From an uncultured Dehalococcoidales bacterium (GTDB lineage: Bacteria > Chloroflexota > Dehalococcoidia > GIF9 > AB-539-J10), in assembly GCA_964394145.1 (NCBI GenBank), contig CAYMVL010000025.1, forward strand, positions 96,493-160,492: a DNA stretch of 64,000 nucleotides, given 5' to 3'. How positions within the stretch are numbered: position 1 is the stretch's first letter; each line of letters starts with the position of its first letter. The notes under the pieces are model-generated. The model made no database searches. It was given only the letters and a program-made list of their open reading frames with translations, and was not told the DNA's origin. The position numbers were made by a program, and so were the translations under genes. Shown here one piece after another: positions 11,339 through 30,943 of this stretch.

Positions 11339-11467
11339 CGACGCCGGTATTAAATTTGGCGCGAATGACCTTCTAAAGATACCTACCCGAAGAGTGCAAT
11401 AGTTTTGACCGATGGGACAGGCCTGACAGATATGTCTCCGCCGGCTCCCGTACACGTAACAAAGAGT

Positions 11468-12688
11468 ATGATGATGACGAGCTCTGAGCAGGCGAAACCA
11501 AAAATAGCCTTGGTGGTGCCCTTTGACTATTTGTCCCTCTACAGCGGGTCGGTACAGAGAGTCAAGGCTGATTTGGCCGCCCTGATGTACGGCGACTACA
11601 ATGTCGAGATGATATTGCCTGCACGTGTCAACGGGCCCGCAGATAACGGCCCTTCGGGGCTAACCACGATAACGTACCCCAACATCCAGCGACTTACGAT
11701 ACTACCGGAAAAAGTGAGGCTGCTCTTCGACATGTATACACAGATGCTTAACCCGTTCTTCCGTTCCACTCTGCGTAAACGCTACGGAGGTTATTCCATA
11801 ATCTTCGCTCATTTTCCCTGGAGCCTTGCCGCATCACACAGGGTGGTAAAAGGGAAGATACCACTCATATACGTGGCTCATGACTTTGAGTATGGCCTGA
11901 TAAGACAGGCTACGCATAACCCCTTAATTCGAAAGCTTACCTATCATGTTGAGAAATCCGCCTGCCACAGCGCAGCAAAGATACTCTGCGTCTCCGAACC
12001 GGATATGAAGGCCTTACAGACGGCCTATGAAGTCCCTGCGGAAAAGTTTGCCCTGCTTCCGAATACCGTGGATACCGATTATCTCGGTCAGACTCGCACC
12101 TTATATGACAGGGGTACTGAACGCCGGAAACTGGGGCTTGACCCCTCCTCTTTCCTCCTGCTCTTCCACGGACGGATGGACTACAGACCGAATCTACATG
12201 CCCTCAGTTTTATTCTAAACGAGCTTGTGCCTGCCCTGAAGGAATGTGGAGATAACCTGCGGCTAATAGTAGCCGGGGCTAGAATTCCACGGTGGAGCTT
12301 CGCTAACAGAGACGAAACCATCTCCTTCTATTCGGATGTCCCGGATATGCGGCGTTTTCTTGCTGTGGCTGACGCCGTCATCGTGCCCTTGAGCATGGGC
12401 GGGGGCACCCGCCTTAAGATACTCGAGTCCTTCGCTGCAAGAGTCCCGGTTATCTCAACAGCCAAAGGAGCTGAGGGCATCGACTGTGAGGATGGCCATC
12501 ATCTATTGATTGCGCGCAGCACAGCAGCAGACTTCGCCACTAAGATTAAGATACTGGCTGCAAGTGCAGACCTGCGGCAGCAACTAGCAGACAATGCCTA
12601 CGACCTGGTCTCAGACAAATATAGCATCCCGGTTGCCAGCAGATGCCTGCAGGACATAATTGCGCACGCCACAGCTCAGGAAATATGA
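11468..12688 (+). CDS. glycosyltransferase family 4
   Basis: GT4 (group 1) fold with a C-terminal sugar-donor-binding region (ILESFAARVPVISTAKGAEGI). The longest ORF starts with a TTG at 11405. ATGs at 11468-11476 give MMMTSSEQAKPKIALVVP, the typical GT4 N-terminus. Confidence 0.75.
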   Translation: MMMTSSEQAKPKIALVVPFDYLSLYSGSVQRVKADLAALMYGDYNVEMILPARVNGPADNGPSGLTTITYPNIQRLTILPEKVRLLFDMYTQMLNPFFRSTLRKRYGGYSIIFAHFPWSLAASHRVVKGKIPLIYVAHDFEYGLIRQATHNPLIRKLTYHVEKSACHSAAKILCVSEPDMKALQTAYEVPAEKFALLPNTVDTDYLGQTRTLYDRGTERRKLGLDPSSFLLLFHGRMDYRPNLHALSFILNELVPALKECGDNLRLIVAGARIPRWSFANRDETISFYSDVPDMRRFLAVADAVIVPLSMGGGTRLKILESFAARVPVISTAKGAEGIDCEDGHHLLIARSTAADFATKIKILAASADLRQQLADNAYDLVSDKYSIPVASRCLQDIIAHATAQEI

Positions 12689-12710: not shown

Positions 12711-15026
12711 ATGACTGGACCTAACGACTGGGAAATCAAGAAATGCCTCCGCATGTCGGTGGCCTTTCTGCTGGCGACAGCTGCTCTGCTGTTGCTGGGC
12801 ATTTCAGGCTTCTATATCCCCGTCTTAACCCAGGTTGTCGGCTTCATCTTCCTGACATTTGTCCCCGGCATCCTTATCCTCAGAATCCTGAAAATTCACA
12901 ATGTCAATGCCATAGAAACCCTGGGCTATTCGGTGGGCTTGAGTATTGCCTTCGTCATGTTCACAGGCCTATTCGCCAACTTCGTCCTGCCCCTTATCGG
13001 CATATTGCAGCCGATTTCTGTCCTGCCGCTGATGGCAACTATAGCCATATTTACCGTGATACTCGGTGCTCTAGCCTATCGGCGGGACAGGGACTTCGCA
13101 CCCGCGAGCTCCGGAGTGCATTTCGACATACGGAACATTATGTCGCCTTACTACCTGCCCCTGTTCTTGCTGCCCGTCATTGCCATCGTGGGGGCCCATC
13201 TAGTTAACATCTATCAGAACAACAGCCTCCTGCTGTTCTTCATCATTGCTGTTGCCTGCGTGGTAGCGCTGGTTGCCTTCGACAAGCTGCCTCGCGGGGC
13301 ATATCCGCTGGCGGTAGCATTAATAGGGCTGAGCCTATTGCTGCACATCACCCTCATATCCACCCAGTTATCCGGCTACATCATCCATTTGGAGTACTAT
13401 TTTGAGAATCTTGTTGTCCAGAACGGATACTGGGATTTCACCATCCGAGAGCACTCTAATAGCGTTGTGAGTGTCGTCCTCTTATGGCCCACATACTCGC
13501 TGCTCCTTAACATGCACGCAATCTGGGTCGTCAAGATTATCTACCCGCTTATCTTCTGCCTCGTGCCTGTGCTCCTCTTTCATATCTTCCGCGGTCAGGT
13601 CGGCGATAAGAAAGCCTTCCTGGCAACCTTCTTCTTTATGTCAGTGCCGATATTCTTTACCATCGTGACCGAGTATGCACGCCAGCAAGTTGCCGAACTA
13701 TTTTTCGCCCTAATAATACTACTGATGATTGACCGAAGCCTGGCGTTAAACCAGAGGATAGCGCTGACAATCATATTTGTCATGTCTTTAATAGTATCCC
13801 ACTATGCCCTGGGCTATATCGTGCTGGCTTTTCTACTGGGCGCCTGGGCTGTAGTAGCCTTAATGAGGAGCGGTGCGGGCCGAAAGCTCTGGAGACCGCT
13901 GACCCGCAAAGGTGGCGCCTTGCCAGAAATCTTGACCTCGCAAAGCGCTTTCCCACATAAAATTATGGCGGTGATTATAGCGGTATATCTGCTTTTCGGA
14001 CTTGGTTGGTATGGAGGGATAGCTGGAGGCTCAGTGCTTAACACTATCAGACAAATTACGCACGAGCAGTACTCGCTGTTATCTGAGGAGTTGCCTGTGC
14101 TGGTAGAGTCAATCGAGCTCCCCGGACCAACAGAGCCAGCGCAACCAGCTCAACCAGCCAGCAAATTCTTCGACCCCTCAGAACGAGAAGCTCTGATTGC
14201 CACTGCCCTCGGCCTTGATTTCGCCTCAGCTTCGCCATGGGATAAAGCCTTCAGGATATTTCAATACCTAACCGAGCTCTTTATCGCGGTGGGCTTTTTT
14301 GTGCTGGTTCTGAGGCCGCGGCGGTTCAAGTTTAAGGCGGAGTATATGGGCTTCGTTATGGTAGCAGCTCTCATTCTGCTTGCGTGCATAGTAGTGCCTC
14401 GTGTTTCTCGCTATCTCGACATTACCAGGTTCTACCATGTCTGTCTGTTCTCTTTAGCACCGTTGTGTATTCTCGGCGCCGAGTGCATCTGGCAAAGAGC
14501 CCTCAGTCTCGCAAGACGCGTTACCAGCAGTCAGTCCCATCAGTTCAGATTGGTCGCCTTAGCCATACTCATACCCTATTTTATATTTACTTCCGGCTTC
14601 GTTTTTGAAGTGACGCAGAGCACCTTAGGGTCCTTCCGCACCTCACCTTATTCCCTAGCCTTAAGCAGTTATAGGATAGATATGCCGGTGTTTACGGAAC
14701 ACGAAAGCGAGGCAGTTGCATGGTTGGCTGAAAGAGCAGACTGTGATGTACAGGTGTACGCTGATGAATACGGCAGATTGCTACTTTACGACCGATTATT
14801 GAATCAAGTAGGCAAGATTCCAGCTTCCGGCGAAGTGCCTGATGAAGCGTACGTGTTTCTCAGGCGCTGGAATACGCAGAAGCGGCAGGTGCACATAGCG
14901 ACACGGCAAGGGCCCCGCTACCCACACAGCTACGTCGATATTGACGATATGCCAGCACTGCTTACCAATCGCAAGTTAGTCTACAATAACGGCGGGGCTC
15001 AAATATGGTCGCCGGTTAAGGAGTGA
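12711..15026 (+). CDS. large polytopic membrane protein (DUF2206-like, possible GT-C-fold glycosyltransferase) with a C-terminal soluble domain
   Basis: 771 aa with about 14 predicted TM helices, followed by a roughly 130 aa soluble C-terminal domain. Sits in a glycosyltransferase operon. A paralogous fragment of its C-terminal domain is found at 15521-15915. Confidence 0.55.
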   Translation: MTGPNDWEIKKCLRMSVAFLLATAALLLLGISGFYIPVLTQVVGFIFLTFVPGILILRILKIHNVNAIETLGYSVGLSIAFVMFTGLFANFVLPLIGILQPISVLPLMATIAIFTVILGALAYRRDRDFAPASSGVHFDIRNIMSPYYLPLFLLPVIAIVGAHLVNIYQNNSLLLFFIIAVACVVALVAFDKLPRGAYPLAVALIGLSLLLHITLISTQLSGYIIHLEYYFENLVVQNGYWDFTIREHSNSVVSVVLLWPTYSLLLNMHAIWVVKIIYPLIFCLVPVLLFHIFRGQVGDKKAFLATFFFMSVPIFFTIVTEYARQQVAELFFALIILLMIDRSLALNQRIALTIIFVMSLIVSHYALGYIVLAFLLGAWAVVALMRSGAGRKLWRPLTRKGGALPEILTSQSAFPHKIMAVIIAVYLLFGLGWYGGIAGGSVLNTIRQITHEQYSLLSEELPVLVESIELPGPTEPAQPAQPASKFFDPSEREALIATALGLDFASASPWDKAFRIFQYLTELFIAVGFFVLVLRPRRFKFKAEYMGFVMVAALILLACIVVPRVSRYLDITRFYHVCLFSLAPLCILGAECIWQRALSLARRVTSSQSHQFRLVALAILIPYFIFTSGFVFEVTQSTLGSFRTSPYSLALSSYRIDMPVFTEHESEAVAWLAERADCDVQVYADEYGRLLLYDRLLNQVGKIPASGEVPDEAYVFLRRWNTQKRQVHIATRQGPRYPHSYVDIDDMPALLTNRKLVYNNGGAQIWSPVKE

Positions 15027-15520: not shown

Positions 15521-15915
15521 ATGCCTAAGACGCAAGAGAATGGTACCGGAATTCTGCGCGCACTTGAAGATTACAAGGTGACAGGGGTTTGGGGAGGCGA
15601 GGGCAGGGTAGTAGTCATAACTGCAGTTAAGGACAAGCAGGCGAAATGCCACTATTGTGGTTCGGCAAGGCGAATCCTTTACGAGCAACTTTTCTGGCAG
15701 GTGGGTACACTGCCAGCTTCAGGAGACGTGCCCCGGGATGCCTATATCTTTTTCAGGACCTGGAATACAAAAAAGAAGAGCTTCTTGTAATGGCGCGTCA
15801 CGGAGCCCAGAGAGAATATGAGTACACTAAACTGAGTGAGATGCCAGCGATACTTGAAGGACGCCACCTAATCTATGACAACGGCGGTGCCCAAATATGG
15901 GCACCAAAGTCACGG
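15521..15915 (+). pseudogene. frameshifted paralog of the C-terminal soluble domain of the 12711-15026 membrane protein
   Basis: Strong RBS GGAAGGAGGT 8 nt before the ATG at 15521. The two frames (15521-15790 and ~15766-15915) together align to ...QVGKIPASGEVPDEAYVFLRRWNTQKRQV...DMPALLTNRKLVYNNGGAQIWSPVKE of the upstream gene. The frame switch falls at an A5 run (15769-15773). There is no in-frame stop before running antisense into the GT2 gene. Confidence 0.5.
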
Positions 15916-16878
15916 CTAATCCTTCCTATAAAATTTCGCACCAGCGTCGCAGTCAAGGAATCCATCCCTTACACCCCTCATAAAAGCAACAAGCCTCCCC
16001 ATGTCACGATAATAGAGCAGACAAGCCGCTGTGGTGAACCAGAACCGATACGCGAAGAAATAGAGGAGGAAGCTGCGATATTGACCTTTGCTGGCATGTT
16101 TCTTCATGAATTTGAAGTTGTTTCTCGTCATATAGTATGCATAATTAGGAGGCGTATCAATTTGATCTTTCCTTCGCAGTGTCTTATACCATGGCTTCAG
16201 CCTGGAGGGTTTCTTATGCCAGATGCTTGCTTTTGGAGCGTAGATAATTTTGTAGCCAGCTTCCCTGGCTCTGAAGCAGTAGTCTGTTTCATCCCAATAA
16301 CAGAAGTAGCTTGTGTCAAGGAATCCAATATGTTGAATAACCTGGCGCTTCACTAAGAAGCAAGAGCCTTGCACATAATTTACCTCGCTAACACAGTCAT
16401 ATTGCCCTCGGTCAACTTCTCCACTGCCTACATGAAAAGCCCTCCCCTTACGCATATCCACACGATACCACACAAGTTGGAGCCTGTCTGGAAAATCATA
16501 GAGGTAAGTCTTTGGTCCAACTATGCCGACTGACTTATCACTCTCCGCAAGCTTGACCATCTCGGTCAGGAAGTCAGGAGCGACGGTAACATCGTTATTC
16601 AGTACCAAGAAATAGTCTGCTGAAGGATCACTTAAGGCGTATCTTATGCCCATGTTATTACCGCCGGTGTAGCCATAATTCTTATCGTTTCGGATTAGAT
16701 GAATGTAATCACCAAAGTCCCCCTCCAGGATCTGCACATCACTCCCCTTAGAGCCATTGTCAACCACAACAACCTCATAGTTTGGATAGGTAATCTTCTT
16801 TAGCGATTCTAGGCACTCAACAGTATCGTCCAGTCCGTTCCAGTTGAGGATTATGATAGAGACTTCGGGATACTTCAT
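15916..16878 (-). CDS. glycosyltransferase family 2
   Basis: VSIIILNWNGLDDTVECLESL...EVVVVDNGS...LNNDV, a classic GT2 with a DxD. Its ATG overlaps the upstream methyltransferase stop as ATGA. Confidence 0.85.
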   Translation of the reverse strand: MKYPEVSIIILNWNGLDDTVECLESLKKITYPNYEVVVVDNGSKGSDVQILEGDFGDYIHLIRNDKNYGYTGGNNMGIRYALSDPSADYFLVLNNDVTVAPDFLTEMVKLAESDKSVGIVGPKTYLYDFPDRLQLVWYRVDMRKGRAFHVGSGEVDRGQYDCVSEVNYVQGSCFLVKRQVIQHIGFLDTSYFCYWDETDYCFRAREAGYKIIYAPKASIWHKKPSRLKPWYKTLRRKDQIDTPPNYAYYMTRNNFKFMKKHASKGQYRSFLLYFFAYRFWFTTAACLLYYRDMGRLVAFMRGVRDGFLDCDAGAKFYRKD

Positions 16879-17561
16879 TTCCCACCACTAATTTGTTTAA
16901 CTGCAAGCAATTGGAATGCCAGTTTTGGGTAGTAGTAGGTAACCTTTTGGCTCAAATCAGAGAGCCTGCCCCATAAAAAGTGGGGGGCGTATTTTGTCTG
17001 ACCCCTATATCCCCTCAGTTTTTTCCAGCCGTTCATTCCATGGACTTCGAACCCTAGCTTCTGTAATTCTTTAGCGGTCCAGCCAGATTTATGCTCTTGT
17101 AATGGATTGTTGTCGTAACCATCCTGCCAGAGGTATCCATTTGGCGTTGTAATTATAACCTTCTTCCCAGCCCATGTTTGCATTTTATTGATTAGCCTAT
17201 ACCCTTCCTCTTTCGTTAAGTGTTCCAACAACTCAATAGCTATAACGACGTCAACGGATTTGGGCCTAAGCTGCATTCCTCTAGCATCCGCCTTAATGTA
17301 TTGATCATGAATACCCTTCCTTTTGCTTTCCTGCAGGTAAGGCTCGAATAGTTCAACCCCAACTGAAAAAGCAACATCACAATGTTGGATTGGAGAATCG
17401 CAACCACAGCCCAAATCTAAAACTGCATCGCAGTTCGAAAGTTCCCTTTTCAAATATTCAATCAAGCTAGGAAATAACCTTCTATAAAAAGGCTTCAAAG
17501 TCTTGATTAGCGAACGTCTCTTCTGTTTTGCTACGATGTCAAAGGATTGCGGACCTTTCAA
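16875..17561 (-). CDS. class I SAM-dependent methyltransferase
   Basis: Motif I VLDLGCGCDSP and a methyltransferase-type-11-like fold. TTG start with no clear SD, so the start is uncertain. Confidence 0.75.
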   Translation of the reverse strand: MKGPQSFDIVAKQKRRSLIKTLKPFYRRLFPSLIEYLKRELSNCDAVLDLGCGCDSPIQHCDVAFSVGVELFEPYLQESKRKGIHDQYIKADARGMQLRPKSVDVVIAIELLEHLTKEEGYRLINKMQTWAGKKVIITTPNGYLWQDGYDNNPLQEHKSGWTAKELQKLGFEVHGMNGWKKLRGYRGQTKYAPHFLWGRLSDLSQKVTYYYPKLAFQLLAVKQISGGK

Positions 17562-17728
17562 AACTTACAGCACAGTTTTTGCAGTGGATTCCCGGAATAG
17601 GCCGTTCTCTTGTGTGAATTAGTAAACACGGGTAATATTGCGCGGCCTCTCCGGATAGTATATTATTCAATCTGCTTTAAGTGCAAGATGCTTCATATTA
17701 AATATTCTATATCAATTGGATGACTTGA

Positions 17729-19099
17729 GTGAACCTGCTTCTCTTGACCATTGACTGTCTCAGAGCAGACCACCTGAGCTGCCTCGGCTACCCAACGAAA
17801 ACAACGCCCAACCTGGACGAGATCGCAGGCCACGGCACGCTCTTCACCCAAGCGATAGCAGTGGGGCCAGAGACTCCTGTTTCTTTCAAGGCTCTATTCA
17901 CCTCGAGTTACCCCTTCATGCATGGCGGTAGGCTCTATGTCACAGATACGACAACCATCCTGGCGCAGGTGCTTAAAGACCATGGTTATCACACCGCAGC
18001 ATTCCATTCCAATCCATGGCTCTCATCGTTTTTTGGGTACCAAATGGGGTTTGACAAGTTTGATGACAGCATCATCAAGAGCCGCTCTGAGAGCCTTGTT
18101 GGCAGACTGCGGAAATTACTCAAGGCCATGGTAGGTGACGAGGGCAGATTGTACGAGTCTGTCCGACAAATATATGCTAGCCTTAGGCCCGGTAATTTCT
18201 ACAGCAAGGCTGAGGCGATAAACAGGCGGGCTGAATCATGGTTACAGAGCAATAGTAATAATTTCTTCCTCTGGTTACACTACATGGACGCTCACGAGCC
18301 GTATCTGCCATCCTCGAGGCTCATATTCCCCCTTAAGAAGTATCGCCTTCTAGAGCTTGACATGAAGGCACACCGGTCGCCAGACGTTTTAGCCCCCCTG
18401 ATAAGCCACTGGGCCAGAATCTACGAGTCCAAAGTCGCCTATGTGGATGCGATGATGGGTGCGCTTCTCAATACCTTAAAACGGAGCAACATCCTCGACG
18501 ATACCTTTGTGATCATAACCGCAGACCACGGACAGCAATTCCTGGAACATGGGCGTTATGGGCACGGCCACTTTCTCTATGATGAGCTAATTCATGTCCC
18601 CCTGATTATTGCCGGACCGGGAGTAAAAGCTCAGGTCACTACCGAGCAGGTAAGTCTGCTGGACTTAGCGCCGACTATTCTGGACATGCTTAACATCGAG
18701 AAACCGAAGGCATTCCTTGGGAAAAGTCTGCTTCCATTGATGAATGGCAATCACCCACAAGCCGACCATCTGGAGGCTATAAGTGAGGCGGACACAGTCC
18801 AGCGCCTCACTGAAGTCAGCGTGGGACGCATGCCTCGACTTGATGTCAACCACAGGAGGATATCACTCAGAACCGGCAAATGGAAATACGTTTACACCGA
18901 AGGAGAACTGCACGAGCTATACGATTTACAGGATGACCCGGGTGAGACGAAAAACGTAATCGATACTAAGCCACAGGTCGCGACAGATTTGCGAGGCAGG
19001 ATAATAGCCCACATCGAGTTCGAGGGAAAAAGCAAGCTCAGCGAACAGGACCTCATAAGGCAAAAGACAATACGCCTGAAAGGCGCTGCAAGGATATAA
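17729..19099 (+). CDS. sulfatase-family (alkaline phosphatase superfamily) protein lacking the C-x-P-x-R formylglycine motif
   Basis: N-terminal metal site LTIDCLRADHL...TPNLD, and C-terminal ITADHGQQF...GHG...YDELIHVPLIIAGPG typical of the sulfatase family. The position of the FGly motif reads E-T-P-V-S. Confidence 0.8.
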   Translation: MNLLLLTIDCLRADHLSCLGYPTKTTPNLDEIAGHGTLFTQAIAVGPETPVSFKALFTSSYPFMHGGRLYVTDTTTILAQVLKDHGYHTAAFHSNPWLSSFFGYQMGFDKFDDSIIKSRSESLVGRLRKLLKAMVGDEGRLYESVRQIYASLRPGNFYSKAEAINRRAESWLQSNSNNFFLWLHYMDAHEPYLPSSRLIFPLKKYRLLELDMKAHRSPDVLAPLISHWARIYESKVAYVDAMMGALLNTLKRSNILDDTFVIITADHGQQFLEHGRYGHGHFLYDELIHVPLIIAGPGVKAQVTTEQVSLLDLAPTILDMLNIEKPKAFLGKSLLPLMNGNHPQADHLEAISEADTVQRLTEVSVGRMPRLDVNHRRISLRTGKWKYVYTEGELHELYDLQDDPGETKNVIDTKPQVATDLRGRIIAHIEFEGKSKLSEQDLIRQKTIRLKGAARI

Positions 19100-19103
19100 T
19101 TCG

Positions 19104-20483
19104 ATGAACCTCATCCTGTTAACCATTGACTGCCTCAGGGCAGACCACCTGAGCTGCTTGGGCTACTCCAAGAAAACAACGCCAAACCTGGACGACATTG
19201 CAGCCCACGGCACGCTCTTCAGTCAAGCCATAGCAGTGGGGCCAAATACCCCTGCTTCTTTCAAGGCTCTCTTCACCTCTAGTTACCCCTTCATGCATGG
19301 CACTAGGCTCTACGTCACAGAATCCACAACCACACTGGCGCAGGTCCTCAAAGACCATGACTACCGCACGGCGGCATACCACGCCAACCCATGGATATCA
19401 TCCTTTTATGGCTATGAGAAAGGCTTTGAAACCTTTGATGACGGCGTAGGGAAATGGAGCATTGAAAGCCACCTCAGCAAAGCGCAAACATCTGTCAAGC
19501 GAGTCATAGGCACGAGCGGCTCATTGTATAAGTTCCTACGCCAAAGATACACTGAGTTTCGGTTCGCTCGTTATATGAGCAAGCACGATTCTACTACGCT
19601 AAACAGGAAGGCGATGTCATGGCTCCGTGACAATAGCAACACTTTCTTCCTATGGATACACTACATGGATGTTCATGAGCCCTACCTGCCAGCCTCAAGA
19701 TTTGCCTCGCTATTAAGAGGCTATGGCATTGTTAGACTTAACGCCATAGCGCAGTACTCACCGGATAGGCTATCACCACGCGGCGTAAGGAAGCTCACTG
19801 AACTGTATGATGCAAACCTTCGCCATATTGACAGGCAAATAAGTTCTCTGCTAAGCAGACTAAGACAAAGTAACATCCTTGATAATACATTTGTAATTAT
19901 AACCGCAGACCACGGGCAGCAATTGCTCGAGCGAGGGCGCCATGGTCACGGCTATTATGTCTATGATGAATTAATCCACGTACCGCTGATTATCGCCGGA
20001 CCGGGAGTGAAAGCTCAGGTCATTACTGAGCAGGTAACTCTGTTGGACCTAGCGCCCACTATACTGGACATGCTCAAGATCGAGAAACCGAAGGCATTCT
20101 TGGGGAAAAGTCTGCTTCCATTGATGAATGGGAATAAGGTGAAAGGGGCGGGCTCACAGGCCATAAGCGAGGCAGACACAGCCAGCCCTCGGAAAGCAGC
20201 CACTGTGGACAAAAAGCCGCGACTTGATGCTAAACATCGGAGAATAGCACTCAGGGCGGGTAAGTGGAAGTACATTTATACCGAAGGCGGACAAGACGAG
20301 CTTTATTGCCTTGCAGAGGACCCGGGCGAGACGAAAAACATAATCGATGCTAAGCCACAAGTCGCGGCGGACCTGCGAGCCAAGATAATGGCCCACATTC
20401 AGTTCGAGGAGAAGAGCAACCGCAGTGAAGAGGGTCTCATAAAGGCGAGGATAGGAAAGCTAAGAAGCACTGGCAAGATATGA
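19104..20483 (+). CDS. sulfatase-family protein, tandem paralog of 17729-19099
   Basis: Same architecture, and the FGly position reads N-T-P-A-S. About 250 nt at the 5' end and a ~150 nt block near the 3' end are close to 90% identical to the upstream copy at nucleotide level. Confidence 0.8.
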   Translation: MNLILLTIDCLRADHLSCLGYSKKTTPNLDDIAAHGTLFSQAIAVGPNTPASFKALFTSSYPFMHGTRLYVTESTTTLAQVLKDHDYRTAAYHANPWISSFYGYEKGFETFDDGVGKWSIESHLSKAQTSVKRVIGTSGSLYKFLRQRYTEFRFARYMSKHDSTTLNRKAMSWLRDNSNTFFLWIHYMDVHEPYLPASRFASLLRGYGIVRLNAIAQYSPDRLSPRGVRKLTELYDANLRHIDRQISSLLSRLRQSNILDNTFVIITADHGQQLLERGRHGHGYYVYDELIHVPLIIAGPGVKAQVITEQVTLLDLAPTILDMLKIEKPKAFLGKSLLPLMNGNKVKGAGSQAISEADTASPRKAATVDKKPRLDAKHRRIALRAGKWKYIYTEGGQDELYCLAEDPGETKNIIDAKPQVAADLRAKIMAHIQFEEKSNRSEEGLIKARIGKLRSTGKI

Positions 20484-20519
20484 ACAGGTAAATTCAGATG
20501 CAGTAGACGGAGTTGACTA

Positions 20520-21434
20520 ATGAAGCTCAAGAGAGCATTGAAATACATAAGGGAGGGTGATTTCGCATCCCCCTGGGCCTGGTTCGCAGCAAAGACCTTT
20601 TGGCCACTACTTCACAGAGACCTGGGCACAGGAAAAGCTGTAAGAGTCATGGAACAGGATTGGGACTACTTGATTGTGCTGGATGCCTGTAGATATGACA
20701 CATTTAAAGAAGTAGTAGACGCCCAGGCGGGGTGCGTTATATCCGGGGGAACCCATACTCAGGCATGGCTGGAATGGAACTTTAGACAAGAGTATCGGGA
20801 TGTTATATACGTAGCGGGCAACCCTCATTTTGCCACCGCATACCTAAAGAAGACTCTGGGATTTAACCCCTTCTACATGGTGGAAGAGGTTTGGGACTAC
20901 GGATGGGATGACAGCCTCAAGACGGTGCCTCCGGAGCAGGTGACCAATGCAGCACTCAAGACGCTGAAAACCTACCCTGAAAAGAGGATGATAGTCCACT
21001 ATATGCAGCCTCACCATCCCTATATAGCCGACAGACAGCTTCTGGATGCAGATGACGGAACCTACCGCGGCTTCGAGGACACTGGTAGATGGCCGGAACA
21101 GATAACACCACTAAGACTGGCCAGAAGGGGCAAGGTTTCCATTCATAGAGTCAAGAAAGCGTACGAACAAAACCTGAGAATAGTAATGAAGGAAGTGGAA
21201 CGGCTTAAGGAATGGTTGCCTGGGAGAGTCATCTTGACGGCAGACCATGGAGACCTCTTTGGGGAACAGGGACTTTACGGGCACGGGACGAATTTGAGGG
21301 TAGACGCCCTGGTAAAAGTGCCCTGGGTGATTCTGAAAGACGAGAAGAGACGACGGGCATCTGGAGAACCCGGCGGTGAGAGGACGAGAGTTAGAGCCAA
21401 GATAGTGGACCTCAAACGATCAGGCAGGTTATAG
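20520..21434 (+). CDS. alkaline phosphatase superfamily (sulfatase-like core) protein
   Basis: LIVLDACRYD metal-site motif near the N-terminus and TADHGDLFGEQGLYGHG near the C-terminus. It is shorter, at 304 aa. Confidence 0.6.
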   Translation: MKLKRALKYIREGDFASPWAWFAAKTFWPLLHRDLGTGKAVRVMEQDWDYLIVLDACRYDTFKEVVDAQAGCVISGGTHTQAWLEWNFRQEYRDVIYVAGNPHFATAYLKKTLGFNPFYMVEEVWDYGWDDSLKTVPPEQVTNAALKTLKTYPEKRMIVHYMQPHHPYIADRQLLDADDGTYRGFEDTGRWPEQITPLRLARRGKVSIHRVKKAYEQNLRIVMKEVERLKEWLPGRVILTADHGDLFGEQGLYGHGTNLRVDALVKVPWVILKDEKRRRASGEPGGERTRVRAKIVDLKRSGRL

Positions 21435-22970
21435 AAACCTGCGCAAGATTTTCTTAATAGAAGATAAATTGAGGCCCGCCCTCTTCTCCATTGCCAGAAG
21501 CATGGTTATGTCCTCCTTGTCAAAGCTCCTGGTAAACAGGATAGCCAGGCCATACACGACATAGTAGAGGATGAACAGCAAGGGGAGCATCCACCAGACT
21601 ACAGCCACGAAGTCCTCAAGAATGAATTTGAACAGGAACACCAGGGCTAGAGAAACCAGGGTTGGCTTGAGCAGCTTCCTGCTCAGGGGCTGCGCCCCGC
21701 TCAGTGTGTAAAGCTTCCGGTAACTTAGCACGTTAATCGACGTTATGGCAGCTACGGAAGCAATAGCGGCTCCTTCTATGCCAAAGGGCGGAATCAAGGC
21801 AAGGTTCAGCCCGACATTTAGGACGGCACTTGCCAGGGTAACCCACATGATAAACCTGACCTGCCCCATGGCAATCAGGGTAGCCCCGTTAGGCCCCAGG
21901 AAATTGTTGACGATGTAACCTACGGACAGAATTTTGAGGGCTGTCGCTGCCGGAGCATAGCTTGTGCCAAATAGAAAAGCGAGCACGGTTTCGGGAAACA
22001 GGAAAATGATAAAGAACAGTGGTAATGTAGCCGAGCATAACCACTTGGTGAGAACGGAAAAATTCCTCCTCATTTCAGCCATTGAACCTTGGGCGTAGAG
22101 GCCCGACGCAACCGGCATATAAATGGATAGCATGGCCACCAGCGGGCTTGAAATGAACTGTGCCAGGGGATGGGCGGCGTTATAGAGCGCGACATCCACT
22201 GAGCTCCTCATTGCCCCCAGCATCAGGGTATCCGTCCAGGCAATAATCAGGTGAAGCACGGCTATCCCGAGCAAGGGAAGCGAGAATGAGAGAAGCTGCC
22301 CGGCTACGGGGTTTGCACTCAGCGCGGTGCGCAATCCCACGGGGACGGGGAGCCTTTTAGGGGCATAGAGTATGAGAGCCACACAGGATATGACCATGGC
22401 AGCCAGGTGCGCATAGAACACGTGATTAAAGGGCAAATGGAGCAAAATAACAGGCAGAAGAAACAGTAGCAGAAGCAAGTTCCTGAGAATATCCCGGAAG
22501 TAAACAGCAGGCTTCACGTCATCAAAGCCCCTGAATACGGAAACAAATACATATATCAGCGTGAAAAACGGTATGGCGAAGGCGAATATTTTCAGCGGAA
22601 CAGCAAGAGCAGCATCGTGAAAAACTCCGCTGGCAATGATATCCGAAGTAAAGAAGACGATGATGCCCAGGGCAATGCCTGCTATAAGAGCAAACTGAAT
22701 CGAGGCGGGAATCAGCTTCTGGATCCTTTGATTATCGTTTTGGCCCCGGGCATAGGCGATGCTTCTTGTGACCCCTTCCTGCAAGCCCAGCGCGGCAATT
22801 ACGGCACAGATGTTGAGTATAACGAAGGCCAGGGAGAAAACTCCGTAATCAGCTTCCGTCCCGTACCTGGCAATTATCAGCCTGGCGATAAAGGCAAGAA
22901 ACAAAGCTGCTAAGGAGCCCGTGAAAGCTATCCCTGTGCCTTTGGTGATTTTTACCAGCGAAGCGTCCAA
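21429..22970 (-). CDS. polysaccharide biosynthesis protein / oligosaccharide flippase (Wzx/MOP family)
   Basis: 12-14 TM helices with the MOP-flippase N-terminus LVKITKGTGIAFTGSLAALFLAFIARLIIARYGTEADYGVFSLAF. There is no in-frame ATG near the N-terminus. The likely start is TTG at 22970 (AGGGTG upstream) or GTG at 22979. The track ORF runs to 23090. Confidence 0.7.
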   Translation of the reverse strand: MDASLVKITKGTGIAFTGSLAALFLAFIARLIIARYGTEADYGVFSLAFVILNICAVIAALGLQEGVTRSIAYARGQNDNQRIQKLIPASIQFALIAGIALGIIVFFTSDIIASGVFHDAALAVPLKIFAFAIPFFTLIYVFVSVFRGFDDVKPAVYFRDILRNLLLLLFLLPVILLHLPFNHVFYAHLAAMVISCVALILYAPKRLPVPVGLRTALSANPVAGQLLSFSLPLLGIAVLHLIIAWTDTLMLGAMRSSVDVALYNAAHPLAQFISSPLVAMLSIYMPVASGLYAQGSMAEMRRNFSVLTKWLCSATLPLFFIIFLFPETVLAFLFGTSYAPAATALKILSVGYIVNNFLGPNGATLIAMGQVRFIMWVTLASAVLNVGLNLALIPPFGIEGAAIASVAAITSINVLSYRKLYTLSGAQPLSRKLLKPTLVSLALVFLFKFILEDFVAVVWWMLPLLFILYYVVYGLAILFTRSFDKEDITMLLAMEKRAGLNLSSIKKILRRFL

Positions 22971-23086
22971 TCTAGTCACCCTGGTTCGTTGTGTTATTTT
23001 GCTTCCGTTGAGATTATAGCTTTTCTCCTTTACGAAAGGAATGGGGTACGGGAGATATAATCTGCAGGGACCGCTGCTGTAAGTGA

Positions 23087-23863
23087 TCAACTGGTGGAGG
23101 ATAACAGGGCGTAAAATACGTCCTGCGGCTTATCTATCCGGTAGTCCATATTGACAGTTATCAGCAGGGCGTTCTCATGGTGATCGCCCTTGAGCCTTCC
23201 CCCGGCTGTCTGTTCTGGCAGAGTCTGCACTTCGGCTTCGCCAAAGGAGCAGAAGCCATGGTCGGAGATTATAATCAAGCTGTTGCTCTTGTCGCCGAGA
23301 AAACCGCTATCGAAAAGAAGTGCGCCAATCTTCTCGTCCAGTTTCCGGTACCATTCCAGGACGCAATCCTCACCCCAGTGGAAGTGCTGGATGCGGTCAA
23401 GCAGCGTGTAGACGGAGATGAGCAGATCGGGCCCTTCCGCCAGGAGTTCGGCTGTCTTCCCGGTGACCCTTTCCAGTTCTTGCTGCCACTCTTTATCGTT
23501 TGTGGGAAGACCAAAGCCCACAGGTTTGAAATCCACATTGAAGGAATAGGAGGGGACAACAAAGGGAACATTCAGCGCCTTTACCCTCTTGCCCTCCCTG
23601 TGGAGGATATCCCAGATGAAGTCCACTTTGATGTCTTCCCGCCTGACGATATTTCCATCAACCGCGTAACTGTGATGTCCATGCTCCTCTGGAGTCTTGC
23701 CAGAGAACATGCCACACCATATGGAGGCGGAGAATAGCTCCTGTTTGACGACAAGCTCGCGACATCTTCCTGTATCACAGAGCTTCCTGAAAGTGCTGAG
23801 CCTGTCCAGGTTTGGCCTAATGACCGTCCAGGTAGCAGCATCAATACCGAGAACGAGAATCAT
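23087..23863 (-). CDS. alkaline phosphatase family protein (type I phosphodiesterase/nucleotide pyrophosphatase-like)
   Basis: [11 protein letters not shown]-terminal metal site and IIISDHGF C-terminal site. Its ATG overlaps the cysN stop as ATGA. Confidence 0.7.
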
Positions 23864-25068
23864 CTGCCCGCCTCCAGGACTACCCCTGCTCCAATGTTCC
23901 TATCGTTCACCAGAACGAAGCGCCCAAGCTCAGGAATGTCGGAGAACTTTTCCACCACCAGGGGTTCGGTAGCGAAGAGTATTGTCGCTGCCTCATTTTC
24001 GCTTATCACTGCCGGGTATTTCTCCACAACTTCGCCCGTCTCAGAATTTATTCTCTCCCTTATTTCCTTTACCTCACAGCCTACCCTTGCCGTTCCACAC
24101 CTCAATTCAAGTTTGTCCCCCCTTCTCAAATTCCTTTCCAGCAATACAGCCTCGCCGATGAACTCCTTTACGGGTGTCGGCGGGGATGCCAGAAGACCGC
24201 AAACATCACCCCTGCTCACTTCGCCGTCCACTACAATTCCCACGCTGTCTCCCCGCTCTGCCTCAAGCAACTCGCCCGCGAAGTCCTTCATCCTTTTAAT
24301 TTCCGCCGCAACGCCCGAAGGTTGGAAGATAACCCTGTCCCCTTTCTTCAGCGTACCGGACTCTACCCTTCCTACAACGACCCTGTCGGAGTCAACCCCG
24401 TATGTATCCTGGACGACAAACCTGAGCGGCCTCTGTTCCTTGCTCACCACCACTCTGTCCAGAGTCTGAATCAAGGTGGGTCCTTCGTACCATCTCATCC
24501 GCCGGGACGGCTTGTAGATGTTATCCCCCTCCATAGCCGAGGCAGGCATAAAAGGTACATCGCGATAACCAAGCGAGCTCAGGAGCTGAGTTACCTCAGC
24601 CTTGATACGACCAAAGACCTCAGCGCTATAGTCCACAGCATCCATCTTGTTTACCAGGACGAAGAGTTGCTTTATGCCCAGCATGTGTATCAAGAAAGCA
24701 TGCCTTCCCGTCTGCTCCTGGATGCCTTCATCTGCGGCCACTACCAGAACAGCCACGTCGGCATGAGAAGCGCCGGTGAGCATATTCTTTATAAACTCCT
24801 TATGCCCCGGCACATCCGTGATGGAATAGAGGTTCTTCTGGCCCTTAAACATGACTCCCGTGGTATCTATGGTGCGCTCCTCTTTCAGCTCGTCGTCAAA
24901 CGAGTCAATAAAGTAGGCGAACTCAAATCTCTTCTTGTACTCCTCAGCCAGCTTCTGAATCTCCTCCACCCGCCCCTCGTTTATGCTCTCGGAGTCGTAA
25001 AGCAACCTCCCTATTAAGGTGGACTTGCCGTGGTCCACATGGCCTGTGATGACTACATTTACATTCAT
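23860..25068 (-). CDS. cysN: sulfate adenylyltransferase subunit 1 (GTPase, CysN/NodQ family), no APS-kinase domain
   Basis: [14 protein letters not shown] and NKMD G-motifs. It is 402 aa, so only the EF-Tu-like GTPase and beta-barrel domains are present. Confidence 0.85.
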
Positions 25069-25135
25069 AACTGTACCCTCCTAGAAATCAAAATTTAAAC
25101 GCTAAAATTCAAAAAGACAATGCGAAATTTAAAAG

Positions 25136-25507
25136 TCATCTCTTGCCTCTTAGCGTCAAAATGCTCGCAGCGATGACACTGGCAATCTCCGTCAACTCTT
25201 CTAGAAGCTTCTGACTTAGCTCCTTTTCAGATTTGCCAGAGTCTTGTAACAGCCCCAGCCAGAATTTTGTCTCATTGGCTGATTTTAAGGCGTGGGCAAA
25301 GAAATTAGTGTAGTCCTTATTCGAAACAGCACCTTGAGCCTCAGCCATATTTGCCCCGATGCTGGTAGCACTCCGTAGTAACTGGTCACCAATAATCCTT
25401 GATGTCTGGTCCTTCGGCAGTTGTTCGATAAACCGGATAACATCCAGAGCAAATTGATATACCCGCTGCCTAAACTCGTCTTTAAACTTCAATCTCGCAT
25501 TTTGCAT
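25136..25507 (-). CDS. four-helix-bundle protein (23S rRNA intervening-sequence protein / Avd-like family)
   Basis: QFALDVIRFIEQLPKDQTSRIIGDQLLRSATSIGANMAEAQGA...FAHALKSANETKFWL matches the TIGR02436/PF05635 family pattern. Flanked on both sides by AT-rich low-complexity sequence. Confidence 0.8.
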   Translation of the reverse strand: MQNARLKFKDEFRQRVYQFALDVIRFIEQLPKDQTSRIIGDQLLRSATSIGANMAEAQGAVSNKDYTNFFAHALKSANETKFWLGLLQDSGKSEKELSQKLLEELTEIASVIAASILTLRGKR

Positions 25508-25533
25508 TTTTGTTTTTAATTTTTGGATTTTGT

Positions 25534-26334
25534 TTACATATATCCTAACGCCCTCAGCTTCTGCATGGTGAAAGCCTTCTCCTTGTCCTGTGCTCTGCCG
25601 GACCTTTCCGCAATCCTGGTCGTCCTCAGCTCCTCGACTATCTCATCGATGGTGCTGGCGTTGGAGTCGATGGGGAAGGTGCATGGCTCACATCCCAGGC
25701 TCCTGTACCTTTTCCCATTTTTGGCAAAATACATGGGGTTCACGGGAAGTCCTTCCTCCCTGACGTATTCCCAGACATCCAGCTCCCGCCAGTGCAGAAT
25801 CGGATGCACTCTGGTGTGCGTCCTGTCATCAGTCGTAGCCTGGTACTGGTCCCACATCTCCAGCGGCTGGTTCTTATAGTCCCATCTGAAGTCCTCATCC
25901 CGCGGGGAGAAATACCTCTCCTTGGCTCGTATGCCATGCTCATCCCTCCTTATAGCCAGGATAAGGGCATCGAATCCATTCTTCTCCAGGCATTGCATCA
26001 GGGCCTCCGTTTTCAACCTGGTGCAGCATTCAAACTTTCCGTCCTTGGGGCCCACCCCCTGTGCAATCGCCTCTTCATTTCTGGCTACCACCAGGTCCAG
26101 GCCCCATTCTCTGGCGATCCTGTCCCTGAACTCATACATCTGCTTGAATTTATACGTAGTATCGATGTGAATTACAGGGAAGGGAATCTTGCCGAAAAAG
26201 GCCTTGCGACAAAGCGAGAGAGCGGCGGTGCTATCCTTGCCTGTGCTCCACAGGACTGCCGGTCTCTTGAACTCGGCATAGGCCTCCCTTATTATGTATA
26301 TGCTCCGATTTTCCAGCTCCTTCAGTTCTAGCAT
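25534..26334 (-). CDS. cysD: sulfate adenylyltransferase subunit 2 (CysD)
   Basis: PAPS-reductase-like fold (AVLWSTGKDSTAALSL, HIDTTYKF). The ATG at 26334 is preceded by an AGGAGGTG SD. The track start, a GTG at 26343, lies inside that SD. Confidence 0.85.
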   Translation of the reverse strand: MLELKELENRSIYIIREAYAEFKRPAVLWSTGKDSTAALSLCRKAFFGKIPFPVIHIDTTYKFKQMYEFRDRIAREWGLDLVVARNEEAIAQGVGPKDGKFECCTRLKTEALMQCLEKNGFDALILAIRRDEHGIRAKERYFSPRDEDFRWDYKNQPLEMWDQYQATTDDRTHTRVHPILHWRELDVWEYVREEGLPVNPMYFAKNGKRYRSLGCEPCTFPIDSNASTIDEIVEELRTTRIAERSGRAQDKEKAFTMQKLRALGYM

Positions 26335-26360
26335 GGTAATCACCTCCTGATAATTCGTTA

Positions 26361-27158
26361 TTAGAAGACAAATGCCTTAGCTAGGGTCGCTGCCCCTAGC
26401 AGGCATGTGACTCCCCCGATAAGCAATTTTAGCCTGTCAGAACCTAACCTTTTAACCGTCATAGCTGCAAATGGCGCTGCTATAACTGAGCCTATGGCAG
26501 CAGCAGCGACGAGCGTCCAGTATACATCGCCTTTGAGCAACAGATACGCCAAGAAACTCACAGCGCAAACAATAGTGACTGCAACCGTGGTGCTCCCAAC
26601 AGAGTTCTTTACCTCCCGTCCGCTAATTATCTGCCCGCCTGTCACCAGCGGAATGTACCCTCCTCCACTTATCCCCTTGTTAAAAGAGCTTAAGATTCCT
26701 ATCCCGATAAGCCTTTTCCACGAAAGCGCTCCTGCCCTGCTCCTGCGCATGAGGACCAGTATTCCCACCGCCAGGACCATCACCCCTATGTAAATTTCGA
26801 GAGCAAGCTCCGGGATATTCATAGCACAGACCACACCTGTAAGGCCGCCAATCACCCCACAGATGGCCAGAGTGAATACGACCTTAGCATCTTGGGACCT
26901 GGGCAGATAACCCAGTCCTCGCAACCTCTCTTTTATCAACCTGTCATCCCGTCTGAAATCCAGACTTATGTTCCTCACCCGGTGGTGTGCAACCCCTCCA
27001 ATTAAACCACCCGCAAACTGGCTTAACAATACCGCCGGGATAACCTGCAAAGGGGCGAATCCCATGATAAGAAGCACGGGCGCCAGAGCAGTCCCATAAC
27101 CCAGTCCCACGGAAATGCTCATATACTGGAACAAAAGAGCAAACAAGGCTACAGCCAT
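26361..27158 (-). CDS. TauE/SafE family sulfite/sulfonate exporter-like membrane protein (DUF81)
   Basis: 265 aa with 8 TM helices and two repeated halves. Glycine-rich TM motifs typical of DUF81. Confidence 0.75.
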   Translation of the reverse strand: MAVALFALLFQYMSISVGLGYGTALAPVLLIMGFAPLQVIPAVLLSQFAGGLIGGVAHHRVRNISLDFRRDDRLIKERLRGLGYLPRSQDAKVVFTLAICGVIGGLTGVVCAMNIPELALEIYIGVMVLAVGILVLMRRSRAGALSWKRLIGIGILSSFNKGISGGGYIPLVTGGQIISGREVKNSVGSTTVAVTIVCAVSFLAYLLLKGDVYWTLVAAAAIGSVIAAPFAAMTVKRLGSDRLKLLIGGVTCLLGAATLAKAFVF

Positions 27159-29834: not shown

Positions 29835-30400
29835 TTCGCCTCCTCCATGTAGTGAAACCGGATATCGGCATCCCTCAGAGCGGGCCATTTTTCATCTTTT
29901 GCGGATAAAATAGGGTCTTTAACAGGCCACTCGATATTCAGCTCTGCATCATTCCAGATAATACCGGCTTCAGATTTGAGTGAGTAAACATCGGTGGTCT
30001 TATATATCACTTCGGCAATGTCCGAAAGAACACAGAAACCATGGGCCAGTCCTGCCGGGATATAGAGCATATTCCTGTTTTCCTCCGACAGGACTACACC
30101 CACCCATTTGCCCCGCGCAGGCGAGCCCTCTCTTATGTCAACGGCGACATCAAATATCTCGCCCCTTACCACCCTGACCAGCTTCCCCTGCGCGAAAGGC
30201 GGCTTCTGATAATGCAGCCCCCTGAGAACGCCTTTGCTGGAACGGGAGTGGTTCTCCTGGACAAAAGCCGCCTTTATGCCACCAGCAACGAAGTCCGGCA
30301 TCTTGTATGTTTCCATAAAGAAACCCCTGCCGTCTTCAAATACCTCTGGCTCTATCAGGACCAGTCCTGGAATATCTAGCGTCTTGAAAGCGAATGGCAC
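29831..30400 (-). CDS. rfbC: dTDP-4-dehydrorhamnose 3,5-epimerase
   Basis: RmlC cupin (GLVLIEPEVFEDGRGFF, RGLHYQ). GTG start at 30400 with an AAGGGAGAGG SD. Confidence 0.9.
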   Translation of the reverse strand: MPFAFKTLDIPGLVLIEPEVFEDGRGFFMETYKMPDFVAGGIKAAFVQENHSRSSKGVLRGLHYQKPPFAQGKLVRVVRGEIFDVAVDIREGSPARGKWVGVVLSEENRNMLYIPAGLAHGFCVLSDIAEVIYKTTDVYSLKSEAGIIWNDAELNIEWPVKDPILSAKDEKWPALRDADIRFHYMEEAK

Positions 30401-30420
30401 GTAAAACCTCTCCCTTGCTG

Positions 30421-30878: not shown

Positions 30879-30887
30879 TAACTCTCA

Positions 30888-30935: not shown

Positions 30936-30943
30936 ACCATCCC

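Follow-up and report, generated by a model that had tools for sequence, protein, structure and literature searches.

What three adjacent proteins with a sulfatase-like core, none of which carries the formylglycine (FGly) motif of sulfatases, might be doing inside a glycan-synthesis gene cluster is the question raised by this locus. The genes lie in a 64-kb stretch of contig CAYMVL010000025.1 from an uncultured Dehalococcoidales bacterium (the window, meaning here the whole stretch of DNA that was analyzed) and are referred to as A (17729-19099), B (19104-20483), and C (20520-21434). They encode, respectively, a 456-amino-acid (aa) soluble sulfatase-fold protein with a GTG start, a 459-aa tandem paralog of A, and a 304-aa truncated paralog reduced to the core of the alkaline phosphatase (AP) superfamily. 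All three are co-oriented on the plus strand, with gaps of 4 nt between A and B and 36 nt between B and C, and the open reading frames (ORFs), coordinates, and strand were as listed in an initial annotation of the window. As judged from alignments and predicted structures, A and B combine a sulfatase scaffold with a Thr nucleophile and belong neither to the FGly sulfatases nor to the membrane-anchored LtaS/EptA clade. With a little more confidence than doubt, we propose that A and B, and probably C, act as cytoplasmic Thr-nucleophile sulfotransferases on a lipid-linked glycan.

Domain searches placed A and B in the sulfatase family. Both matched the Pfam model PF00884 (Sulfatase) at E values of about 1e-45 over residues 2-325 (8.7e-46 for A), both contained the sulfatase C-terminal subdomain PF16347 (SGSH_C), and both gave secondary matches to PF01663/Metalloenzyme. 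Protein C reached PF00884 at threshold only (25.2 bits, cutoff 25), with a PglZ hint besides. All three proteins scored far below each curated NCBIfam cutoff; the best partial matches were to the arylsulfatase (E 8e-39 for A and B), choline sulfatase, and PehA models, whereas the LtaS and EptA models were matched by A and B at E values of 1e-7 to 1e-3 only. An AlphaFold2 (AF2) model of A (pLDDT 89, pTM 0.88) was compared with the PDB using Foldseek, and the top 50 matches were S1 sulfatases and phosphonate monoester hydrolases (PMHs) exclusively (E 1e-26 to 1e-22, TM-score 0.62-0.70), with no LtaS or EptA structure among them. The AF2 model of C (pLDDT 90) was a bare AP-superfamily core in which the sulfatase C-terminal subdomain is missing, which together with the threshold PF00884 match bears out the description of C as a third, shorter AP-superfamily gene. 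Its top Foldseek matches were the catalytic domains of MCR-1, EptA, and ICR, although these were weak (E~1e-7, TM-score 0.42-0.52), and sulfatases came next. No Pfam match to a canonical sulfotransferase domain (PF00685, PF13469, or PF03567) or to an ASST domain was obtained in A, B, or C.

A and B are predicted to be cytoplasmic because neither contains a transmembrane (TM) segment or a signal peptide (maximum 19-residue hydropathy 1.1-1.4); both start directly at beta-strand 1 (MNLLLLTIDC...). Protein C has an N-terminal extension of ~53 aa with an aromatic amphipathic stretch in the hydropathy profile. Membership of A and B in the LtaS/EptA/MdoB group, which the initial annotation had raised as an alternative, was ruled out by the NCBIfam scores, the Foldseek matches, and the absent membrane domain.

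The active site of A and B differs from that of sulfatases at the nucleophile itself. A scan over the full length of A, B, C, and the 258-aa AP-superfamily protein described below (AP258) found no [CS]-x-[PA]-x-R motif, so that a misaligned C/S-x-P-x-R elsewhere in these proteins, an error against which the initial annotation had warned, was looked for and not found. In HMMER alignments, Thr49 of A and B fell on the FGly cysteine of solved sulfatases (T-P-V-S-F in A and T-P-A-S-F in B against C-S-P-S-R in 6PT4, C-G-S-S-R in 4UPL, and C-A-A-S-R in 6HR5), with Ser52 matching the conserved Ser and Phe53 matching the Arg of the sulfatase motif. The replacement of the FGly motif had thus been recognized correctly, but its register had been read one residue too early, at Glu48 and Asn48. 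Thr49 was invariant in 112 of 112 close homologs (38-66% identity), among which position 48 varied (G, W, S, N, or E). A more distant set, drawn from at least 80 genome loci of bacteria and archaea, comprised at least 98 homologs, and the peptide patterns used for retrieval did not cover the Thr49 site. Among the matches listed, the site was Thr in 92 of 98, Ser in 5, and Cys in none, with one sequence unalignable.

The remaining conserved residues of the A family were D9, R12, D14, N95-P96, H184, H189-x-P191, D266-H267-G268, H274, and H279; C10 is a further core residue of A, and the catalytic constellation of B is as in A. Active-site assignments were made by alignment to solved sulfatases, according to which D9, D266, and H267 correspond to sulfatase metal ligands and H189 to the histidine of the sulfatase H-x-P motif, while the sulfate-pocket Arg is replaced by F53, the sulfate-binding Lys by H279, and the second metal Asp by Cys10. 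In 29 members of the C family, D55, C57, R58, D60, T80, P102, H165-x-P167, D242-H243-G244, and H255 were invariant, Thr80 among them.

In FGly sulfatases, the aldehyde hydrate lets the covalently bound sulfate leave by elimination. This route is closed to a Thr adduct, and transfer would therefore be favored over hydrolysis. The annotated ORFs of the 64-kb window included no FGly-generating enzyme (FGE/SUMF1) and no anaerobic sulfatase-maturating enzyme (anSME). Many PF00884 members with Thr in place of Cys or Ser have been noted in the SulfAtlas classification, where it was pointed out that Thr is not maturable to FGly and that such proteins cannot be sulfatases (PMC5066984); the Thr substitution is by itself not new, since such members had already been described there. 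The motif absence and the invariant Thr at the FGly position agree with the initial view that A and B are not classical FGly sulfatases, and Thr is, from the alignments, the best candidate for the alternative nucleophile that it had suggested.

Genes A, B, and C lie inside a ~25-kb glycan cluster that also encodes glycosyltransferases (GTs), a flippase, RmlABCD, AglB, CysD, CysN, and TauE, so the initial observation of GTs, CysD, and a CysN-like GTPase nearby held. A Wzx/MATE-type glycan flippase gene (21429-23090, minus strand; PF01943/PF13440), whose product is 50% identical to the flippase beside an A-homolog in a metagenome-assembled genome (MAG) of Dehalococcoidales, converges on C and shares 6 nt with its end. 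It is followed, in tight packing on the strand opposite to A-B-C, by a fourth AP-superfamily gene, AP258 (23087-23863, minus; PF01663 type), a gene for a CysN-like (EF-1alpha-like) GTPase without a fused adenosine 5'-phosphosulfate (APS) kinase domain (23860-25068, minus), a 23S_rRNA_IVP-family gene encoding a four-helix-bundle protein (25136-25507, minus), cysD for the small subunit of sulfate adenylyltransferase (25534-26343, minus; PF01507 at 3e-43, NF003587 at 343.6 bits, cutoff 195), and a gene for a TauE/SafE-family anion permease (26361-27158, minus), which is the candidate sulfate importer of the cassette. The start of AP258 overlaps the stop of cysN and its end overlaps the start of the flippase gene; its product retains the DHG motif and has Ser at the nucleophile-like site (FSASIW...GKTPEEHG). 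No APS kinase was found in the window using Pfam and a P-loop regular expression, Pfam detected no canonical sulfotransferase or ASST domain among the ORFs of the cluster, and the window contained no CysH, CysC, or sulfite-reductase genes. This is a sulfate-activating cluster without a known sulfate transferase but with four AP-type genes, a point in favor of the proposal.

The same association was found in other genomes, whose loci are designated here by L numbers. A TauE/CysD/CysN-like set stood beside an A-family gene and a flippase gene, in varying order, in L084 (13738-17477; an ENA metagenome contig), L085 (16256-19897), and L087 (8983-12582; Ca. Methanoperedens), the counterpart in the window being 23087-27158 on the minus strand. 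In L084 and L085, CysN is followed by a PF01663 protein of ~258 aa; in L087, a 240-aa ORF without a Pfam match occupies the small-AP position. L085 also holds three ~525-aa PF01663 genes, one A-type gene, and one C-type gene. Neither an APS kinase nor a canonical sulfotransferase or ASST domain was present among the listed genes of L084, L085, and L087. Among the matches listed for the distant homologs, sulfate-activation genes (ATP sulfurylase, CysD-like protein, or APS kinase) were located at 10 kb or less in 9 of 80 loci and were usually adjacent; the binomial tail for this count is ~1e-6 at a generous per-locus background of 1.3%. ATP sulfurylase was encoded in L003, L013, L023, L059, L063, and L080, and a CysD-like protein in L010, L013, L023, L024, L031, L059, and L080, while L003 was the only fetched locus with an APS kinase. 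The CysD-like family (~270 aa) has a C-terminal ...RRQDKE...LGYM as in CysD and reached only 72 bits on the CysD model. These co-localizations tie the Thr-type family to sulfonucleotide metabolism in different phyla, whether or not the locus is a glycan cluster. Haloarchaeal homologs, 31-34% identical to A and 31-37% identical to C, were found 8 kb or less from aglB in L011 and together, likewise near aglB, in L012.

Several features of these loci were recorded in addition. The CysD-like gene comes immediately after Thr-type sulfatase-fold genes, and in many cases ATP sulfurylase is encoded separately nearby; at such loci there is often a second, more divergent sulfatase-fold gene whose product reads D-E-R-D ... 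F-T-P-V-S-H. Examples are L059 (8784-13323), L013 (9875-13445), and L023 (6055-9363), in addition to L031, L080, L010, and L024, and the hosts are Synergistota, Bathyarchaeia, Pirellulales, Dehalococcoidia, Cloacimonadota, and Desulfatiglandales. The gene order in L059 is Sat-A-CysDlike-A'. In L003 (9983-14581, from an uncultured archaeon), the A-homolog adjoins genes for an APS kinase, a 464-aa PF01663 NPP-like protein, and, on the opposite strand, ATP sulfurylase, with HdrA/MvhD/HdrBC-like redox genes upstream. In L023 (4685-9363, from a Pirellulales MAG), an ASST-family arylsulfotransferase-like gene, an ATP sulfurylase gene, the A-homolog, and the CysD-like gene stand in a row that is preceded by an MttB-family gene. 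Two to five neighboring Thr-type paralogs were very common (L001, L013, L015, L029, L034, L041, L042, L051, L059, L062, L072, L074, L080-L083, and L086), which agrees with a scheme in which each modified position has its own enzyme.

If A, B, and C are sulfotransferases, the group transferred, its donor, the intermediate, the acceptor, and the cellular target would be as follows. The TauE permease would import sulfate, and CysD with the CysN-like GTPase would activate it to APS; 3'-phosphoadenosine 5'-phosphosulfate (PAPS) could take the place of APS as donor only with an APS kinase encoded elsewhere in the genome. A, B, and perhaps C would each sulfate a different hydroxyl of a lipid-linked oligosaccharide at the cytoplasmic face of the membrane, the acceptor having been assembled by the GTs of the cluster. 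Transfer would proceed most simply via a sulfo-Thr intermediate at the metal site (D9, D266, and H267), which is proposed on the model of EptA and LtaS and their phospho-Thr intermediates, or else by direct in-line transfer. The flippase would then export the sulfated glycan, and the AglB-type transferase, or possibly the DUF2206 protein of the cluster, would attach it. A more far-reaching version, which we put forward only tentatively, is that the Thr-type proteins constitute a third class of sulfotransferase, distinct in mechanism and widely distributed among bacteria and archaea, one that would use a covalent sulfo-Thr intermediate, APS as direct donor, and the small PF01663 AP protein and the CysD-like proteins as obligatory partners, and that would operate here in an archaeal-type N-glycosylation island of a Dehalococcoidia bacterium. 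APS is suggested rather than PAPS because the cassettes (TauE-CysD-CysN-small AP, and Sat with CysD-like) are consistently without an APS kinase.

A number of observations weigh against the sulfotransferase proposal. The Thr nucleophiles of the AP superfamily typically carry out phosphoryl, not sulfuryl, transfer. The A' and B' genes of the syntenic relative L081 lie directly before rml genes, with no CysDN cassette on that 16-kb contig, and L082, L083, and L086 are likewise without a complete cassette within range; all four are nevertheless glycan clusters. Several distant loci with Sat or CysD-like genes have surroundings other than glycan synthesis, with Tct transporters in L059, dehydrogenases in L013, and Hdr-like genes in L003, and the substrates of the family are clearly not all glycans. 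The nearest precedent, Agl30 and Agl31 of Halobacterium salinarum, was likened to A and B through published descriptions, the replacement of FGly by Thr is not known to be shared by these proteins, and the study that describes them addresses neither catalytic residues nor the sulfate donor (PMC11980604).

The alternative that survives best, although we regard it as unlikely, is that A, B, and C are phosphotransferases or phosphodiesterases that would add phosphate-bearing substituents to the glycan or trim it, or process APS or 3'-phosphoadenosine 5'-phosphate (PAP) at phosphorus, with CysDN serving another sulfotransferase encoded elsewhere. Phospho-chemistry would suit the Thr nucleophile and the His (H279, 12 residues after D266-H267) that replaces the sulfatase Lys, as well as the phosphoethanolamine transferases MCR-1, EptA, and ICR being the best structural matches of C, the secondary PF01663/Metalloenzyme matches of A and B, and the PF01663-type genes that accompany the family in L002, L003, L085, and L087. 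It is less easily reconciled with the gene content, since no phospho-donor synthesis gene (for CDP-glycerol, CDP-ethanolamine, or CDP-choline) was found in the window and the recurrent, often translationally coupled neighbors are sulfate-activating genes. EptA and LtaS, moreover, take up their lipid donors on the outer side of the membrane, but for A and B a soluble, cytoplasmic state is predicted, and the genetic precedent for this fold in oligosaccharyltransferase (OST) clusters is sulfation (PMC11980604). Of the functions that the initial annotation had allowed (phospho- or sulfo-group transfer, or trimming, in glycan modification), the conserved gene context thus upholds glycan modification and favors sulfo-transfer over the other two.

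It is improbable that the proteins are non-canonical cytoplasmic sulfatases that hydrolyze organosulfates or edit over-sulfated glycans, with CysDN re-activating the sulfate released. Such a role would be in keeping with the overall fold, with the closest solved structures being sulfatases and PMHs, and with the metabolic appearance of some distant loci (TctC/TctA in L059, the ASST-family gene in L023, and the dehydrogenases in L013). The FGly motif is, however, absent across the family, F53 and H279 stand where sulfatases have the Arg and Lys that bind the sulfate and the FGly hydrate, and a Thr-sulfate adduct would have no elimination route. The window also lacks the CysH, CysC, and sulfite-reductase genes that would make assimilation meaningful, and close relatives are always found in glycan-synthesis clusters beside a flippase. 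That A, B, and C are catalytically dead scaffolds or glycan-binding proteins is very hard to credit, for although the canonical nucleophile and two sulfate-binding residues of sulfatases have been lost, the D, R, D, T, N-P, H-x-P, D-H-G, and H residues are invariant or nearly so in >200 homologs from both domains and are common to the C family.

The relationship between A and B was examined separately, as the initial annotation had described them as recent duplicates with patches of gene conversion. Overall, A and B were 62% identical in protein and 70.6% in nucleotide sequence, and the identity was distributed very unevenly. The first 250 nt, for which ~90% had been estimated, measured 85.6%, while the estimate held for the 3' block, where the best 150 nt (A 18602-18751, B 19986-20135) were 90.7% identical; over alignment columns 300-760 the identity was ~56%. 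Two conversion-like tracts were delimited on the plus strand, at A 17730-17973/B 19105-19348 (86% nucleotide identity) and at A 18574-18761/B 19958-20145 (86% overall). Among codons specifying the same amino acid in both genes, codon identity was 80% in codons 1-80 and 68% in codons 291-335 but 24-55% elsewhere (Fisher p=2e-4), and an interval scan selected codons 13-80 (86% versus 56%, permutation p~0.017). Quartet site patterns were then counted using A, B, and the A' and B' genes of L081 (GCA_975957625.1). Within nt 1-270, 901-1080, and 1171-1350, sites grouping AB|A'B' outnumbered those grouping AA'|BB' by 90 to 5, whereas the counts elsewhere were 27 and 26, with AA'|BB' ahead at 631-720 and 811-900 (Fisher p=7.6e-10 for tracts against the rest, the segments having been chosen post hoc). 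Nucleotides 1-270 gave 43 AB|A'B' sites against 3 and 2 for the other patterns, and nt 901-1080 gave 24 against 1 and 2. In the middle segment, B was nearest to proteins of other genomes (64-66%) and not to A, whereas within the tracts A and B were mutually nearest relatives.

The heterogeneous codon identity and the incongruent quartet patterns support an old duplication in which the catalytic core appears to have been repeatedly gene-converted. The mosaic part of the initial description was therefore sustained, but not the recency of the duplication, as third positions are saturated in the middle segment, where proteins from other genomes are more similar to B than A is. A different explanation of the patches, without any conversion, would be that one old duplication was followed by stronger purifying selection on the catalytic core; this seems rather unlikely. 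The high-identity tracts do fall on the parts of the proteins that are conserved best, namely the metal/nucleophile region at the N terminus and the DHG...PLII core, and other tandem pairs also have higher identity in the same segments. Selection alone does not readily account for the codon identity at same-amino-acid codons being 80% and 68% in the tracts against 24-55% outside, for the switch in quartet support from 90:5 to 27:26 (p=7.6e-10), or for the nearest middle-segment relatives of B (64-66%) being in other genomes. The divergent parts of A and B correspond to a low-confidence helical insertion (~113-160) and to helices 201-252 in the model of A, and plausibly these parts form a lid that touches the acceptor. 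Divergence at codons ~90-250 and ~340-370, the predicted lid and substrate regions, is consistent with different acceptor specificities of the two proteins.

The host and origin of the cluster were considered next to its gene content. On the far side of the cassette, two small ORFs separate the TauE permease gene from rmlD, rmlB, rmlC, and rmlA for dTDP-rhamnose synthesis (27964-32035, minus), beyond which lies a gene for an STT3/AglB-type OST of the archaeal subfamily (32123-34504, minus; PF02516 and PF22627). The latter matched TIGR04154, a curated archaeal STT3 model named 'archaeosortase A system-associated', at 705.5 bits against a cutoff of 450. Upstream of A are a GT2-GT4 fusion gene (9485-11338, plus; 617 aa, with a GT2 and a DUF1972/GT4 module), a GT4 gene (11405-12688, plus), a gene for a DUF2206 membrane protein (12711-15026, plus), a GT2 gene (15916-16878, minus), and a gene for an S-adenosylmethionine (SAM) methyltransferase (16875-17561, minus). 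The cluster architecture matches the Ca. Methanoperedens locus L087, and the order in L081 is GT4-GT4-DUF2206-A'-B'-rmlDBCA. An archaeal host, prompted by the AglB, DUF2206, and Methanoperedens matches, was ruled out by the bacterial flank genes: the two flanks encode the bacterial hallmarks NrdR, DprA, TopA, EF-P, ClpP, trigger factor, a GAD-containing AspRS, and the delta subunit of Pol III, and the AlaRS is 69-73% identical to Dehalococcoidia/Chloroflexota proteins. A contig chimera is unlikely, because the same proteins were found on contigs of independent NCBI, JGI, and Logan assemblies. From its gene content, the cluster looks like an archaeal-type N-glycosylation island in a Dehalococcoidia-like bacterium; literature searches for OSTs in Dehalococcoidia gave nothing relevant.

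Several minor features of the window and of the protein families were also noted. A frameshifted DUF2206 remnant at 15668-15906 and 15130-15336 matches the last ~83 residues of the DUF2206 protein (tblastx E 4e-25 against 14775-15014; 57% and 41% aa identity in two frames), and its position just downstream of the intact gene points to a past duplication or cassette exchange in the cluster. The same ~0.9-kb gap contains a 68-aa HicB-like ORF, and a 236-aa ORF at 15646-16356 is probably no gene. The counterpart of the GT2-GT4 fusion in L081 (389 aa) consists of the GT4 part only, and 23S_rRNA_IVP-family genes are also present in the related glycan clusters L082 (3005-3292) and L083 (2853-3227). 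About 3 kb past the OST gene, a 403-aa protein with Big_9, PKD, and cadherin-like repeats is encoded (37780-38991, plus), which is a possible surface substrate of the glycosylation system. A promoter and terminator scan of 17300-21700 gave results at or below shuffle expectation. The C family (proteins P0252-P0370) comprised 865 matches, almost all of which bear the name 'hypothetical protein' and most of which have no Pfam domain; these were mainly archaeal (Thermoplasmata, Promethearchaeota, Aenigmarchaeota, Diapherotrites, and Natronomonas), with a few bacteria, and amount to an unannotated mini AP-superfamily family carrying an invariant Thr.

To our knowledge, the enzymes that sulfate prokaryotic glycans are largely unknown. 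Sulfotransferases with a sulfatase fold have a single precedent, the genetic work on Agl30/31 (2025), and literature searches for other AP-fold or PAPS-independent glycan sulfotransferases gave nothing beyond that study (PMC11980604). As far as the searchable literature shows, the new elements are the invariant Thr/His active-site signature of a soluble clade, its recurrent TauE-CysD-CysN-small-AP or Sat/CysD-like partners without an APS kinase, the breadth of the clade across bacteria and archaea, and the archaeal-type OST island in a Dehalococcoidia genome. The locus offers a testable catalytic hypothesis (Thr for FGly, and His for the sulfate-pocket Lys), its conserved partner cassette points to the sulfate donor, and a systematic mis-annotation as 'arylsulfatase A-like enzyme' is corrected in a family that spans many bacterial and archaeal phyla. 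If the proposal is true, PAPS-independent tools for glycan sulfation could be derived from these proteins, and an S-layer-bearing Dehalococcoidia bacterium would use archaeal-type N-glycosylation with a sulfated glycan.

Four groups of known systems can be compared with this locus. Like the S1 sulfatases and PMHs (SpAS1, 4UPI; PMH, 2VQR/4UPH; PsS1_NC, 6PT4; choline sulfatase, 6G5Z), A has a two-subdomain fold made up of PF00884 and SGSH_C, in which D9 and D266-H267 stand at the metal-ligand positions and H189 at that of the H-x-P histidine. Unlike the S1 sulfatases, it has T-x-x-S-F in place of C/S-x-P-x-R and F53, H279, and Cys10 in place of Arg, Lys, and Asp, it carries no secretion signal, and its gene context is biosynthetic rather than degradative. 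With EptA/MCR-1, LtaS, OpgB/MdoB, and YejM, the proteins share the position of the Thr nucleophile and a D-H pair followed by a conserved His, and A, B, and C are, like that class, probably group transferases rather than hydrolases. They differ from it in having no multi-TM N-terminal domain and a predicted cytoplasmic location; A and B are far closer to sulfatases, C resembles the MCR-1/EptA cores best but weakly, and the group transferred here is likely to be sulfuryl and not phosphoethanolamine or phosphoglycerol.

A dedicated CysDN paralog is combined with a sulfotransferase for a glycoconjugate in the NodPQ and NodH system of Sinorhizobium, in which APS-kinase activity resides in NodQ and NodH belongs to the canonical PAPS-dependent sulfotransferases. 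The present cluster resembles NodPQ in that a second-purpose CysD/CysN-type sulfate activation is placed inside a gene set for glycoconjugate modification, and differs in that it encodes neither an APS kinase nor a canonical sulfotransferase, the candidate transferases having the AP/sulfatase fold.

The closest parallel is offered by the aglB cluster of Halobacterium salinarum, in which three AP-core/sulfatase-like genes were studied (Zaretsky et al., mBio 2025, PMC11980604). There, VNG1056C/Agl30 is membrane-associated (predicted TM segment 21-39) and VNG1057C/Agl31 is soluble, each is needed for sulfating one sugar of a dolichol-phosphate-bound tetrasaccharide, either protein confers sulfation when present in Haloferax volcanii, and no role was detected for the third gene, VNG1063H (PMC11980604). 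Agl7 of Haloferax is likewise required for sulfation (PMC3892788). The present locus differs from that of Agl30 and Agl31 in that its host is bacterial (Dehalococcoidia-like) and not haloarchaeal, and in that the cluster brings its own TauE-CysD-CysN-small-AP cassette. As with Agl30 and Agl31, AP-core/sulfatase-family paralogs are found here in an OST-anchored cluster with GTs and a flippase. A and B resemble Agl31 in being, as predicted, cytosolic, and the hydrophobic N-terminal segment of Agl30 (21-39) is loosely similar to the extension at the N terminus of C. The divergent specificity regions of A and B fit an arrangement like that of Agl30 and Agl31, in which each sulfated position has its own enzyme. 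By this analogy, A, B, and C may conservatively be filed with the recently recognized sulfatase-fold sulfotransferases of N-glycosylation.

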